DNA from: a virus
Virus record (IMG/VR): IMGVR_UViG_3300021197_001769
Strand: one strand, 5' to 3'
DNA length: 64,000 nucleotides
How positions within the stretch are numbered: the stretch's first letter is position 1; every line of letters begins with the position of its first letter. The translations under genes and the position numbers were made by a program. The notes beneath the pieces were generated by a model. That model saw only the letters and a list, made by a program, of their open reading frames with translations, ran no database searches and was not told the DNA's origin. Of the stretch, positions 575 through 44,380 are shown in pieces.

Positions 575-940
575 TCAGTCATCGTTATCTCCTATTTTAC
601 ATTTAGTAAAGTCTGCTTTATACCATAAAGCTTGAGCTTCAGGAGATTTATCTTTCATCCATTTACCTACATCAGGTTGATAAGCACCTCTTCTAGAAGA
701 TATCTCTTTAATGACTTCATCCATAACCTTATCACCATTATAACCATACTTAGCCATTTCACCATAACAGAATACTATCATATCTGCCATAGCATCTATT
801 CTTCCATCTGTATCTTTAGACTCTAGAAATTCACCACACTCTTCTACAATCATAGCGATAAAACCATTTCTATCTGGCTTTTGTATAGTAATCATTCTCT
901 CGTCAGACCACTCTTTTATTCTTTCGTAATTAGTACTCAT
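575..940 (-). CDS. MazG-like / all-alpha NTP pyrophosphohydrolase
   Basis: EECGEF...DAMAD acidic metal-binding pattern of all-alpha NTP-PPases. Confidence 0.7.
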   Translation of the reverse strand: MSTNYERIKEWSDERMITIQKPDRNGFIAMIVEECGEFLESKDTDGRIDAMADMIVFCYGEMAKYGYNGDKVMDEVIKEISSRRGAYQPDVGKWMKDKSPEAQALWYKADFTKCKIGDNDD

Positions 941-1563
941 TCAGGACTCCAATAAAAATTATCTTTAGTATCAAATCGCATATCTGTAGACTTCCATTTA
1001 TTATCTACATAACTATAAAACTTTCCACTATCTAGTGATAGTGAGTTTTCGAATTTTGTTGACGATAAGTTGCCTTCTTTATCGTAGAAGAGAGGACTAT
1101 TGTCGTTTCTAAAACAACTTAAGAAAGGATTGAACTTACCGTACCATATACAAGCAAATGATCCTTCACTATTAGATAGTCTTTCACAAGGATCACCATT
1201 CAATAGACCAGTTAATAATAGATAAGTATCCCAAGTAACTTTTTGGAACTGATGCTCTTCTTGCCACTTCTTTACTTGAGTATCTAAAATTATTCCGTTG
1301 TGCCAGAGATAGTCTCCACCCTTATATGCTGGATGTATGTTCTCATTTTCACTCCGTTCAGTTGTAGGCTCCTGAACATGACCTATAATAAGATAGTCTT
1401 CATCTAGATCTATCTCTGGCATCGGTCCTAGCCCTTTTGTAACAATGCTTACTTTGCTTCCATTATAATAAGAAATACTATGACTATGAGATCCTCTATA
1501 GCTATTCAATTTAGCTAACTCATAGAACTTATCTTTATTTCTTGATGCAAATATACCACACAT
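937..1563 (-). CDS. class-II (Ntn) glutamine amidotransferase, stand-alone partner of QueC
   Basis: N-terminal MCGIF, YRG, GH, HP and HNGII motifs; translationally coupled to queC. Confidence 0.85.
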   Translation of the reverse strand: MCGIFASRNKDKFYELAKLNSYRGSHSHSISYYNGSKVSIVTKGLGPMPEIDLDEDYLIIGHVQEPTTERSENENIHPAYKGGDYLWHNGIILDTQVKKWQEEHQFQKVTWDTYLLLTGLLNGDPCERLSNSEGSFACIWYGKFNPFLSCFRNDNSPLFYDKEGNLSSTKFENSLSLDSGKFYSYVDNKWKSTDMRFDTKDNFYWSPE

Positions 1564-8202: not shown

Positions 8203-8746
8203 GTACGACTTCGTAAGTAGGAGCTCCTACAAACCAATTCGGAATATTACCTAGCTTCCATTTAGCAAAGGTAAACTTCTCCATATTGTAATAAGTACGA
8301 TATGCTTCTACAGGATCTTTTCTATGCCATTTCTTATTAGTAATAGCTTGAACAAACTCAGTCTTTCGTTCTTTCTTAAACTCACAATATTTTAACTGAG
8401 CTTCATAAATCATAGTACAACCTTCTAGTTTATGATTTTTATCATATCTTAGATAATATTGATGACATAACTCTCTCAAATGATGACATAGCCATTTAGC
8501 GTTACCTCTAGCTTCTATAGCCCATAATGTAGCAGGATGCTTTACATGCGCAGGAGGGTAATTAGGAAGACCTAATTGTTGACTAGGTTTACTTTTCCAA
8601 CCTTTACCTCTATGCTCATCAATATAGTTAACATCGATAACAGCAGATAAAATCTGACAAGTCTCGATAATCATTTTGACAACATGTTTATCGCACATCA
8701 TTTCTGCAGCTTTTTTAGGATCGCGATCTATACAAAAAACGTTCAT
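8195..8746 (-). CDS. pyrimidine-dimer DNA glycosylase (DenV-like) family protein
   Basis: MNVF.IDRDP..AA...CDKHVVKMIIE..QILS, H.KHP...W, AYRTYY pattern. Confidence 0.7.
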   Translation of the reverse strand: MNVFCIDRDPKKAAEMMCDKHVVKMIIETCQILSAVIDVNYIDEHRGKGWKSKPSQQLGLPNYPPAHVKHPATLWAIEARGNAKWLCHHLRELCHQYYLRYDKNHKLEGCTMIYEAQLKYCEFKKERKTEFVQAITNKKWHRKDPVEAYRTYYNMEKFTFAKWKLGNIPNWFVGAPTYEVVLD

Positions 8747-21405: not shown

Positions 21406-21430
21406 AACACTTCTTCCTTTTACAGTTAAA

Positions 21431-21482
21431 GTGCGTTGCTTCAGCAAAATAGCTTACTTCCGGGTATGGAAACCCCAACGAT
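21431..21482 (-). promoter_or_regulatory. glutamine riboswitch (glnA motif, class I)
   Basis: minus strand AUCGUUG-GGGU..ACCC-GGAAGUA-AGC..GCU-GAAG-CAACGC: P1 CGUUG/CAACG, E-loop AGUA/GAA, three-way junction. Confidence 0.88.
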
Positions 21483-25385: not shown

Positions 25386-25525
25386 CGTGAAGATCCTTGT
25401 GCTCTATATTTTTTAAAGCTTCTTCTTTTGTTTTTGTTCATCATTGCTACTGAAGGTTTACGTCCAATAGAGGTCTTCTTTGGATTTGAAATGTGTGTTG
25501 TTTGAGGTCTAAATCGCGTTGGCAT
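25382..25525 (-). CDS. small basic phage protein (not in the ORF track)
   Basis: MPTRFRPQ...KKTSIGRKPSVAMMNKNKRRSFKKYRAQG; AGGAG RBS. Confidence 0.55.
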   Translation of the reverse strand: MPTRFRPQTTHISNPKKTSIGRKPSVAMMNKNKRRSFKKYRAQGSSR

Positions 25526-25545
25526 AATATACTCCTAAAAAATTA

Positions 25546-25850
25546 ATGGCACTTCTGTTGCCAGGTAGTACCCACCCCGCTAATCGCTACTAAGTCGACT
25601 AGGCTGAAGCTGCAAGAGCTTCCTGCACAAGTGAGACACGCTCGACTTTTACAGGTAAGATTGAAGCAAAAGTAGTGCTTTTTTTAGCATTTACTTTAAT
25701 GTACGTATCTCTAAGAAAACTTTTCAACATACGTCGATCCTATTTCGCCCCCATAAGAAACACTCAACTATGCAAGTGTTTATGGTGGAGGCGCCGGGTA
25801 CCGCCCCCGGGTCCGTCCTATCTATTGCGAGATCCATCATCAAGCAACGT
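25546..25850 (-). ncRNA. ssrA: circularly permuted two-piece tmRNA, alphaproteobacterial type
   Basis: acceptor piece ends CCGGG-GGCGGUA-CCCGG-CGCCUCC-ACCA (CCA at 25785-25783); coding piece starts GGGGGCGAAAUAGGAUCGAC at 25752; G3:U pair; AACAGAA near the 3' end; tag ORF 25688-25599; outer ends approximate. Confidence 0.95.
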
Positions 25851-25856
25851 ACTAAA

Positions 25857-25864
25857 TATTTATA
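25857..25864 (-). promoter_or_regulatory. T4-type late promoter for tmRNA
   Basis: exact TATAAATA immediately upstream of the acceptor piece. Confidence 0.75.
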
Positions 25865-26217
25865 TGGGAAAAGCGAAAAAAGTTTTTAGAGTTTATGTAA
25901 CTTATTTTCCAGATGGAAGATATTACATAGGTTTCTCTCAAAAACCAGAAAAACAATATGTTAATTATTATGGTTCCTCTAAAGAAGTTTTAGAATACGA
26001 TAAAAGTTTACTTATAAAAGATACAATAGTAGTCTACACTGAAAAGAACAAAGCAAAGATGCAAGAGTTTCTTTTACAATGGTGGCATAGACATGATCCT
26101 AAGTGTATCAATGATATGTTGAATATAAGATTAAGATCTAAGTATCTTGATGGTTTTGTTCCGGTACATTGGAGTCCTCGTGACATTCGTCAGTTAGAAT
26201 TAGATTTCCATAATTAG
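25864..26217 (+). CDS. GIY-YIG-like endonuclease domain protein
   Basis: VYVTYFPDGRYYIGFS, YYGSS, QE, N.M; start trimmed to MGKAKK. Confidence 0.6.
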   Translation: MGKAKKVFRVYVTYFPDGRYYIGFSQKPEKQYVNYYGSSKEVLEYDKSLLIKDTIVVYTEKNKAKMQEFLLQWWHRHDPKCINDMLNIRLRSKYLDGFVPVHWSPRDIRQLELDFHN

Positions 26218-43039: not shown

Positions 43040-43133
43040 ATCTCCTACAATTTATTTCTCAATTTCTTATACTATTATTATACTAACTTTTTTAAAAAAG
43101 TTTTTCTAAGACTAAGTTTTTTTTAAAAAAGTT

Positions 43134-43210
43134 TGGCCTGCCCTGAGAGATTCGAACTCCCGGCCTGCTGCTTAGAAGGCAGCTGCTCTATCCAGCTGAG
43201 CTAAGGGCAG
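43134..43210 (-). tRNA. tRNA-Arg(UCU)
   Basis: CTGCCCT/AGGGCAG acceptor, D-arm GCTC/GAGC, anticodon GCTGC-CT-TCT-AA-GCAGC, TTCGAAT T-loop, encoded CCA. Confidence 0.96.
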
Positions 43211-43417: not shown

Positions 43418-43442
43418 AAAAATCTCTCCTTAATTAAATTTA

Positions 43443-43600
43443 TGAGGGGCTCTCTTACAATCACTTCTACCTAGGTATACCCCTCAGCGGTAGAAGCGGG
43501 CAGTTTTTAGATGAGGTTACGGTTCCTTGAGTCCTACCAGACTTGTAAACCTCTGAGACTGTCGAGCCTATCGCTCTCCCTTATTCAGCCTCTCAACCTT
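43443..43600 (-). ncRNA. candidate structured RNA with H-type pseudoknot (family not recognised)
   Basis: about 49% GC by hand count in an AT-rich genome; two nested stem modules plus interleaved CUUCUACC/GGUAGAAG and UGAGGGG/CCCCUCA; own promoter. Confidence 0.6.
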
Positions 43601-43640
43601 TACTATCGCTATGTCATTTTATATTTCCTTTTCTTCATTT

Positions 43641-43679
43641 TATACTTTATTATAACCTCTTTTTAATCAAAAGGCAACT
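43641..43679 (-). promoter_or_regulatory. phage early promoter
   Basis: TTGCCT (43677-43672), 17 bp, TATAAT (43654-43649), AAAGTATA. Confidence 0.85.
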
Positions 43680-43951: not shown

Positions 43952-43990
43952 TATACTTTATTATAGCCTACTTTTAACCATAAATCAACT
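43952..43990 (-). promoter_or_regulatory. phage early promoter
   Basis: TTGATT (43988-43983), 17 bp, TATAAT (43965-43960), AAAGTATA. Confidence 0.8.
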
Positions 43991-44380
43991 GTTTTTTTCA
44001 TTATTTTTAAAAAAAGTAAAGATTTTTTGTATTTCATCATAATCCCATTTACGCATTTCAGTAATACCAGAGATCTTATTAGGTTCCCACCAATTATGAA
44101 AAAACTCTTCATTCTTATCTTTACAGATACCCATCATAACTGTTTTCTCTAAATGCTCAGCTTCTAATCTTGTATACTTTTGTTTAGTACTATACATAAC
44201 TTTAATATCAGAGAAATGCTCAGAGATAGGATTAGGTTCATCAATACCTCTATAGTTAAGTCTAGTCATAGCATCTTTAGAACTTGTAATTCCAACCTTA
44301 TATACTACTCTAGGTTCAGAATCAGTTCTTTTTAATTTTGCTAGATAGACCTTGTATCTTTTTTCTGTTTTAAAATCCAT
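43985..44380 (-). CDS. GIY-YIG-like (T5orf172-type) protein
   Basis: KVYL...VYKVGIT...RL, AE.LEK, G.TE. Confidence 0.55.
   Translation of the reverse strand: MDFKTEKRYKVYLAKLKRTDSEPRVVYKVGITSSKDAMTRLNYRGIDEPNPISEHFSDIKVMYSTKQKYTRLEAEHLEKTVMMGICKDKNEEFFHNWWEPNKISGITEMRKWDYDEIQKIFTFFKNNEKNS

Follow-up and report, generated by a model that had tools for sequence, protein, structure and literature searches.

A pseudoknotted RNA family with a conserved mini-ORF in uncultured marine T4-like phages

The locus and the fold of its RNA

The 64,000-nt stretch of viral DNA analyzed here (the window) carries, on its minus strand, a sigma-70/T4-early-type promoter followed by a short leader with an SD sequence, a two-codon mini-ORF, a single-stranded spacer, and a folded core RNA, beyond which lie a small ORFan gene and a tRNA gene (Table 1). 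The core stands out by its GC content (49.7%, compared with 32.9% for the window), and the SD, the mini-ORF, and the 5' leader are all unpaired in the MFE fold. An earlier note, made from the window sequence, had described an early promoter, a ribosome-binding site ahead of ATG-ACA-TAG, and an RNA of roughly 49% GC, and all three of these claims were borne out. The promoter is also a constant of the relatives, every one of which has a TTGACA- or TTTACA-type -35 box and a TATAAT-type -10 box at the same position. No terminator was found in the window between the RNA and the 68-aa ORFan, and the tRNA-Arg(UCU) is probably part of the same early transcript as the RNA. The 10-nt minigene word has a second exact copy in the window, at 8483-8492 on the plus strand; this copy lies antisense within an ORF, is accompanied by neither an SD nor a fold, and was set aside as a chance occurrence.

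Table 1. Positions in the window of the promoter, the leader, the mini-ORF, the core helices, and the genes that follow (a slash separates the two strands of a helix)
Feature	Position	Strand	Remarks
Sigma-70/T4-early-type promoter, TTGCCT-17-TATAAT	43677-43649	minus	10/12 consensus positions
Promoter boxes	-35, 43677-43672; -10 (TATAAT), 43654-43649	minus	17-nt spacer
5' leader	43626..43638	minus	Direct reading; unpaired in MFE fold
Optional 5'-proximal AUG	43638-43636	minus	Same frame as mini-ORF
SD, AAGGA	43630-43626	minus	Direct reading
Mini-ORF, AUG-ACA-UAG	43617-43609	minus	Met-Thr-stop, then C at 43608
Stop-to-P1 spacer	43600..43608	minus	9 nt, single-stranded, GUAA at end
Folded core RNA	43599-43443	minus	
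P1	43599-43595 / 43518-43514	minus	Closing helix of three-way junction; 5/5 pairs change on both sides, 95% of cells paired; in MFE fold
P2	43594-43586 / 43561-43555	minus	Two-G bulge; 7/7 pairs covary, 80% paired; inner pair recovered blind
P2a	43576-73 / 43567-64	minus	Lineage-specific hairpin on P2, with purine-rich internal loops
P3a	43551-47 / 43525-21	minus	P3: 98-100% paired, G-C/A-U swaps at three pairs
P3b	43543-40 / 43533-30	minus	Beyond invariant internal loop
PK-A	43538-34 / 43503-43499	minus	P3b loop with strand just 3' of P1, past A-rich linker; 99% paired; U-A/A-U and C-G/G-C swaps
P4	43496-89 / 43471-64	minus	Hairpin; 9/9 pairs covary
PK-B	43486-80 / 43449-43	minus	H-type, one arm in P4 loop; 86-90% paired; 6/7 pairs change on both sides
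Next cistron, 68-aa ORFan	43417-43211	minus	SD 43431-43424; start 25 nt past PK-B
tRNA-Arg(UCU)	43210-43134	minus	

On the evidence of covariation, the core is a three-way junction (P1, P2, and P3) combined with a pseudoknot, PK-A, that joins the P3 loop and the strand 3' of P1, and with a hairpin-type pseudoknot, PK-B. When a 42-pair model (P1 5, P2 7, P3a 5, P3b 4, PK-A 5, P4 9, and PK-B 7 pairs) was scored on an alignment of 100 sequences (A4), 89.8% of cells were paired, as against 33-53% in controls in which the partners had been slid by 1-3 columns; the covariation score was 0.527, as against at most 0.125 in the slid controls. Changes on both sides were present at 33 of the 42 pairs, and a 66-sequence alignment agrees, the two alignments together giving 89.8-90.1% of cells paired (30-53% in slid controls) and covariation scores of 0.52-0.53 (at most 0.13 in slid controls). 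The alignment was fitted to the nested helices and thus favors them; PK-A and PK-B, in contrast, lay outside the covariance model used for the alignment and are nevertheless paired in 99% and 86% of cells, respectively. A blind, APC-corrected mutual-information scan of all column pairs likewise ranks the helices, PK-A, and PK-B highest, and at about 40 unpaired positions there is little or no variation. Most of the helices also appear in the MFE fold of the window; since the stability of this fold relative to shuffled sequence is not significant (z -0.66 and -0.75), the window sequence by itself is no proof of structure, and the case for a feature beyond chance rests on the covariation across 100 distinct homologues.

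The comparative fold both confirms and corrects the pairings drawn in the earlier note. Its first module (43595-43586 / 43561-43554, enclosing the inner hairpin) corresponds to P2 and P2a, and its 3' H-type pseudoknot has exactly the arms of P4 and PK-B. The outer helix of its second module (43553-45 / 43520-13) can be drawn in the window sequence but is not kept in the relatives, where P1 and P3a take its place; P1 and PK-A, absent from that first reading, were found comparatively. Covariation, which the note had named as a check, proved strong and supports six helices and two pseudoknots. On inspection, base pairing between the mini-ORF and the linker that precedes PK-B was rejected, being confined to one subgroup and not conserved. 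By eye, the spacer and P1 region resembles helix 45 of 16S rRNA, a likeness that we take to be coincidental.

Collection, distribution, and novelty of the family

The element was found by nhmmer in loci that had been reached via a neighboring 87-aa ORF, which yielded 21 sequences, and a 27-nt motif invariant in these 21 was then used to retrieve further members. The motif matches 98 IMG/VR contigs and at least 118 marine metagenome contigs; outside the nhmmer set, membership required this motif, which belongs to P3, so that more diverged members are not represented. As collected, the family comprises at least 100 distinct sequences from marine phages and metagenomes (104 unique members), with RNAs of about 175-190 nt. 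By a covariance model (R1), 66 of 66 and 100 of 100 sources contain one copy each and no more, and the complete record of a 328-kb jumbo phage has one copy.

Searches beyond the marine viral contigs delimit this distribution. Among 185,579 prokaryote genomes, the 27-nt motif has 11 matches, four of which are confirmed by the covariance model as full-length, while the remaining seven were rejected by it as chance matches to the 27-nt word alone. Two of the confirmed matches (L180 and L181) are T4-like phage contigs in MAG bins, with homologues of gp32, UvsX, and gp41, and the other two (L177 and L186), also from MAGs, are short contigs in which a phage-type promoter precedes the element; no homologue of cellular origin turned up in this genome set. 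When applied to whole records, R1 found no copy in T4, P-SSM2, HTVC008M, phiM12, S-PM2, Melnitz, Phage C48C1, or two AG-345 marine viruses, and the positive controls were matched. A blastn comparison of three family members with 50,697 deposited phage records returned no homologue and one short chance-level match, and a tblastn comparison of two downstream proteins with the deposited phage records returned no match among isolates. Judged from these searches, the element is an accessory, single-copy, and patchy feature of uncultured marine T4-like phages and of one 328-kb jumbo phage.

That the RNA is a new non-coding one, outside the known families, holds as well: Rfam 15, searched both at gathering thresholds and at E<=10, contains nothing that matches the element in the window or any of six homologous loci, and the fold covaries strongly. 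It is very probable, in our judgment, that a real, uncatalogued family of structured RNAs with a translated mini-ORF is at hand. Uncatalogued, in this context, does not mean unpredicted, as 10,006 unnamed structured RNAs have been predicted by Fremin et al. (2023) from IMG/VR, i.e., from the same data source and for the same kind of object, and the present family could be among them (PMC10690425). The main-text sections of that study cover tRNA-like RNAs, terminators, and the GP20 and GP32 leaders, and none of these sections deals with a minigene-capped RNA (PMC10690425).

The mini-ORF and the downstream genes

The earlier note was right in recording the minigene but treated it as an appendage, whereas the comparative data make the mini-ORF a defining part of the element. 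It is present in all 104 unique members (103 scored by script and one, L270, by eye), and an SD-like motif lies 5-15 nt 5' of its AUG in 100 of 100 aligned members. AUG-ACA-UAG itself occurs in 81 of 103 members; 13 further ORFs bring the number of variants to 14, and the sense codons of these others include Leu, Trp, Arg-Arg, Arg-Gln, Asp-Tyr-Gly, Lys-Glu-Pro, Thr-Trp-Thr, and Val-Trp-Ile. The mini-ORFs are only ever 9, 12, or 15 nt long (two to four sense codons, AUG included), and UAG, UGA, and UAA all serve as stops. A C follows the stop codon in 94 of 103 members (TAGC in 90, TGAC in three, TAAC in one; the other nine have TAAT), and the spacer between stop and P1 is similarly constrained, measuring 9 nt in 62 members, 10 in 27, 5 in nine, 8 in three, and 11 in two (9 or 10 nt in 89 of 103). 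As TAG-C terminates none of the window's 54 long ORFs, the stop context of the mini-ORF is atypical for the phage; a stop codon followed by C is the weakest termination context in E. coli. As read from the aligned members, the restricted length classes, the fixed position of the stop, and the SD indicate selection for an SD, a start codon, and an in-frame stop at a fixed place, and thus for translation that would end beside the fold.

Codon-specific explanations of the mini-ORF are weakened by its own variants. Sensing of UAG specifically by RF1 is difficult to reconcile with the existence of UGA and UAA forms, and depletion of a single tRNA is difficult to reconcile both with the variable sense codon and with the use of ACA by the phage itself, in which it makes up 27% of the Thr codons.

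The genes beyond the RNA are as variable as the mini-ORF is constant in position. The 68-aa ORFan of the window is shared as the downstream gene by only one related contig (L110), other relatives carrying other genes, and across the members at least ten unrelated families of small ORFans follow the RNA; Pfam and PADLOC searches of the neighboring proteins gave no match. Closely related RNAs can precede different genes (L056 compared with L070, and L107 compared with L010), and tRNA-Arg(UCU) is also found 3' of the RNA in three relatives (L125, L107, and L159). Most lineages lack a terminator between the RNA and the gene that follows. Counted from PK-B, the next start codon with an SD is at most 45 nt away in 81 of 96 members (median 24 nt) and more distant in the other 15; in the members read by eye, 9-16 nt separate the end of PK-B from the next SD, which is located outside the pseudoknot, and the downstream genes carry good SDs of their own. 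The more distant starts go with a second promoter right after the RNA (L101, L140, L280, and L290), a hairpin (L102), or 250-400 nt of extra non-coding sequence (L136 and L145).

A proposed parked ribosome, its precedents, and its rivals

The RNA probably works with a host ribosome parked against its knot, to judge from what the family has conserved: an early promoter, a leader of about 25 nt with an SD, a mini-ORF, a spacer of 5-11 nt, and a compact core. In the proposed mechanism, a host ribosome would initiate on the mini-ORF, translocate once, and then sit on a stop codon placed in a weak context (stop plus C). The helicase site of the ribosome lies at about +11, the edge of its footprint at about +15, and its toeprint at about +15 to +17, counted from the first P-site base. 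With the stop codon in the A site, P1 would begin at +16/+17, or at +12 in the short-spacer variants, i.e., beyond the helicase site and at the edge of the footprint, so that the ribosome could park against the intact knot without unfolding it; by the same inferred geometry, one further codon of translation would invade the fold. Ribosome and knot would then constitute a cis-acting, cap-like device at the 5' end of one early transcript, which would stop 5'-end-dependent decay, whether by RNase E/RppH scanning or by RNase J, would keep ribosomes out of the fold, and might also hand ribosomes to the SD located 20-30 nt further on.

That the RNA is a cis-acting 5' leader, in which ribosome and knot govern the early transcript, is the reading favored here, at a confidence just short of even; the cis-acting reading overall, with its variants, can be regarded as about evenly poised, and its protective roadblock version as less likely than not. 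The cis-acting reading is suggested by the constant proximity of the RNA to a promoter, the lack of a terminator, the closeness of the next SD, and the precedents described below (LEE1, the Gram-positive stabilizers, and the topology of xrRNAs). It is weakened by the presence of one copy per genome and by the patchy distribution, given that these phages have many early promoters and that a general stabilizer would be expected more often. Nor does the downstream gene appear strictly dependent on the RNA, as more than 45 nt separate it from the RNA in 15 of 96 members, and some lineages place a second promoter between the two. An 80-85-codon frame, open through the whole RNA in about 20% of members (frame-preserving, and within one clade), also counts against the cis-acting reading, since its translation would unfold the knot. 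The good SDs of the downstream genes are a further point on that side.

Several known systems share parts of this arrangement. Among Gram-positive 5' stabilizers, the cryIIIA STAB-SD, the erythromycin-stalled ribosome on the ermC leader, and the ribosome-protected hbs mRNA all have their downstream mRNA shielded from 5'-to-3' decay by a ribosome that is bound, or has stalled, close to the 5' end; in these, however, an SD or a stalled ribosome suffices, and there is no conserved double-pseudoknot core. The bar minigenes of phage lambda have an SD and an AUG followed by a single sense codon and a stop, and are read from an early promoter; to our knowledge, bar elements do not form a family conserved among phages, and what is known of them comes solely from their toxicity in Pth-defective hosts. 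Both bar minigenes and the marine family are thus phage-encoded and join an SD and a start codon to a few sense codons and a stop, but bar elements have no structured RNA attached, whereas in the marine family the sense and stop codons vary and the position relative to the fold is fixed. Toxic minigenes are reported to act via sequestration of tRNA (PMC2490762). In EHEC LEE1, a two-codon AUG-AAA-UAG ORF within a leader of about 170 nt is needed for the next gene to be expressed, with its translation important and its position critical (PMC3262186); the likeness resides in an SD-driven two-codon ORF that ends in UAG within a long 5' leader, and the difference in that no conserved pseudoknotted fold separates the minigene from the gene in LEE1, which is chromosomal, restricted to a single lineage, and not homologous.

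Two eukaryotic comparisons concern the fold and its distance from the stop codon. The flavivirus xrRNA, a three-way junction with pseudoknots, forms a mechanical block that also stops the bacterial RNase J1 (PMC5760640). The likeness to class 1 xrRNAs is one of topology only, in that a three-way junction is closed by P1 and the P3 loop pairs with the strand 3' of P1; in both, many bases are conserved, in xrRNAs for tertiary folding. The xrRNAs (about 70 nt, in 3' UTRs) additionally thread their 5' end through a ring by pairing it with the junction, whereas the phage RNA has a longer linker to PK-A, an extra pseudoknot domain, and a mini-ORF, and shows no Rfam or sequence match to them. Because the spacer before P1 is almost invariant in the phage family, no covarying partner for it could appear in the mutual-information scan. 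The nuclease-resistant RNA proposed in the earlier note survives only as a topological analogy to xrRNAs. In the plant pararetrovirus shunt, a short ORF must terminate near a stable stem (PMC2241666); there, as in the marine family, a short ORF close to the 5' end stops next to the base of a stable structure, an initiation site follows directly on that structure, and the 5-11-nt spacer gives all scored members this layout, but the pararetrovirus process is eukaryotic, dependent on cap and scanning, and built around a long hairpin.

The same observations can be accommodated by several other readings, with differing success. Single copy, patchiness, and the fresh promoter that follows the RNA in some lineages favor a trans-acting "ribosome trap" or decoy, in which the RNA-ribosome complex would itself be the product, made abundant by the strong early promoter. 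Such an RNA would tie up host ribosomes, release factor, or tRNA (through peptidyl-tRNA drop-off like that of bar minigenes) or, alternatively, would offer a decoy substrate to ribosome-dependent host nucleases, and in either form would aid host takeover or counter-defense. Its accessory distribution is that of a host-interaction gene, the element is indifferent to the identity of the downstream gene, and the strong SD, the minimal ORF, and the weak stop context occur together; the approximately 40 invariant unpaired positions could contact a conserved partner, e.g., the ribosome, and tRNA sequestration by toxic minigenes offers a model (PMC2490762). We nevertheless consider it unlikely, if a serious contender, since in most lineages the RNA continues into the next cistron with neither a terminator nor a defined 3' end, since trapping ribosomes would be costly to the phage, and since no single tRNA is targeted by a sense codon that may specify Thr, Leu, Trp, or Arg; depletion of the tRNA for ACA would, moreover, hurt the phage too. 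The placement of the RNA in a 5' UTR with PK-B near the next SD, together with a complex core of junction and pseudoknots rich in invariant unpaired bases, would also suit a ligand-sensing riboswitch or a protein-binding operator that controls translation of the next gene via PK-B. This is distinctly improbable: the unrelated downstream genes, none with a Pfam domain, and the mini-ORF, which such a device leaves unexplained, count against it, the SD is not within the pseudoknot, no Rfam aptamer matches, and no mutually exclusive alternative pairing was found by inspection. The suggestion of a riboswitch or ribozyme in the earlier note fares correspondingly poorly, as no ribozyme or riboswitch model matches and a gene-specific riboswitch would not be expected before at least ten unrelated ORFans. 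The other suggestion made there, a type III antitoxin mimic, finds no toxin- or defense-like neighbor; a ToxI-like antitoxin, expected as tandem repeats of about 36 nt beside a ToxN- or AbiQ-type toxin gene, was rejected for want of any tandem repeat and of any PADLOC or Pfam match in the neighbors. A group I intron was likewise rejected (no Rfam match and no exon continuity, the downstream genes having their own SD and start and differing among lineages), as were a ribozyme (no Rfam match) and a programmed frameshift or bypass (no slippery site, and a nascent peptide that is too short).

Two further readings retain the location of the RNA in cis and assign it another task. A ribosome terminating on the mini-ORF could be handed over across the fold to the next SD and start codon, in a prokaryotic form of shunting; we know of no bacterial shunt of the pararetrovirus type. 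The short ORF that ends a few nucleotides before a stable structure, with a start site just after it, reproduces the pararetrovirus layout (PMC2241666), and the critical position of the LEE1 two-codon ORF for the next gene points the same way (PMC3262186), yet the downstream genes have strong SDs of their own and the RNA stands apart from the next gene in 15 of 96 members, sometimes with a promoter in between, which leaves this reading improbable. A modification of RNA polymerase like that by HK022 put, which would render early transcription resistant to terminators, is in keeping with an RNA that is always promoter-proximal and single-copy, that continues into early genes by read-through, and that is indifferent to the identity of those genes. 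The stop codon would here keep ribosomes off the fold, and translation into lambda nutR, which has been reported to abolish antitermination, provides a precedent for such a protective stop. A put-like role is highly doubtful, however, as the RNA resembles neither put nor nut, no terminators were identified farther downstream, and the retention of an SD and a start codon remains unexplained. Finally, a protein-coding region or a functionless chance fold is scarcely credible: the non-significant MFE z-score and the frame without stops across the RNA, seen in about 20% of relatives, can be cited in its favor, but the window copy has 4-8 stops per frame across the RNA, 46 of 65 members are stopped in all three frames, and the compensatory substitutions in the helices contradict it.

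Bacteria and phages have few large, intricately folded RNAs that lack an assigned function, and those studied before have in many cases proved to work by new mechanisms. The present family is abundant in ocean metagenomes (at least 118 contigs) and absent from the Rfam 15 annotation of marine viromes, and it is unusual in having as a defining part a mini-ORF placed so that a terminating ribosome would abut the fold. It is possible, and offered here tentatively, that these RNAs form a class whose working form is a complex with the host ribosome, docked flush against a ring- or knot-like double-pseudoknot core, and serving either as a cap in cis or as a means of titrating or reprogramming translation in trans; if true, this would be a bacterial-virus counterpart of xrRNAs or of shunt leaders. 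Were the complex of ribosome and knot functional, the virus would be using the host ribosome as a structural partner of its RNA rather than as a protein factory, and the promoter, mini-ORF, and fold would provide a tractable module for mRNA protection, ribosome parking, and ribosome hand-over in bacteria.

Reading frames overlapping the RNA

In the window, an AUG that lies about 5-8 nt from where the transcript is predicted to begin shares the frame of the mini-ORF, and the predicted ORF that begins there comprises nine codons and ends at the same UAG. A similar A-rich AUG motif occupies the 5'-proximal site in many relatives, with AUU in its place in others. In one clade of the family (L010, L035, L013, L021, L054, L083, L174 and relatives, these being contigs that carry family members; about 21 of the 100 members), a frame of 80-85 codons beginning MEKE... 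spans the entire RNA. Its AUG sits within a few bases of the site where transcription is predicted to start. This long frame is offset by one base from that of the mini-ORF (frame 1) and overlaps the beginning of the following gene, with its stop 8-11 nt beyond the RNA. The frame is kept open in all indel states found in this clade (80, 82, 83 and 85 codons); in the window copy of the RNA, every frame is interrupted by stops. The long frame could mean that the region is dual-coding, or that it works as a device for translational coupling.

Other RNAs in the window and its relatives

In the window, a tRNA-Arg(UCU) gene follows the RNA, as it does in three further lineages, at distances of about 100 nt to 2.4 kb, and in two of the latter (L125 and L159) it belongs to a small tRNA cluster. 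Next to its own tRNA-Arg, phage T4 also has stable RNAs with no assigned function; a search of the T4 record with the family covariance model returned no homologue of the RNA. The window also encodes a two-piece alpha-type tmRNA, as well as a glutamine riboswitch. A further perfect copy of the mini-ORF with its following C, a 10-nt word, has neither a Shine-Dalgarno sequence nor a fold around it and is judged a chance occurrence (0.15 copies expected). In three relatives (L136, L145 and L098), an additional non-coding, G+C-rich stretch of 110-400 nt follows the RNA; it contains long-range complementary segments and may represent a second structured RNA. An Rfam search of L145 gave no match.

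Features in the window and in related loci (L numbers)
Feature	Location	Strand	Remark
131-aa ORF	window 43985-44380	-	position comparable to GIY-YIG-like ORF
5'-proximal AUG and mini-ORF	window 43609-43638	-	AUG at 43638-43636
tRNA-Arg(UCU)	window 43134-43210	-	downstream of RNA
A/T palindromes (two) and promoter-like site	window 43040-43130	-	two
DUF932-like gene	window 43039-42065	-	50% identical to gene of Methylophilales phage Melnitz
Two-piece alpha-type tmRNA	window 25508-25892	-	
Glutamine riboswitch	window 21430-21482	-	
Second 10-nt word	window 8483-8492	+	antisense within minus-strand ORF
tRNA-Arg(UCU)	L125:7926-8002; L107:1256-1331; L159:5529-5606		downstream of RNA
GIY-YIG-like ORF	L076:1061-1462; L035:1166-1570	+	
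Long frame (example)	L035:2081-2332	+	open through whole RNA
Extra non-coding stretch	L136 ~860-1090	+	between RNA and next ORF
Extra non-coding stretch	L145, downstream of 1349	-	between RNA and next ORF
Extra non-coding stretch	L098, downstream of 787	-	between RNA and next ORF

Neighbouring genes

Beyond the tRNA, the window contains two A/T palindromes (each a T run and then an A run), followed on the minus strand by a TATAAT-type promoter-like site directly before the DUF932-like gene. Upstream of the RNA, many related loci carry a GIY-YIG-like ORF of the homing-endonuclease type at 0.5-0.7 kb; a Pfam search of the 131-aa ORF in the window yielded no match. The region around the RNA has the look of a hyperplastic zone of early genes, with the gene that follows the RNA apparently exchanged among close relatives.
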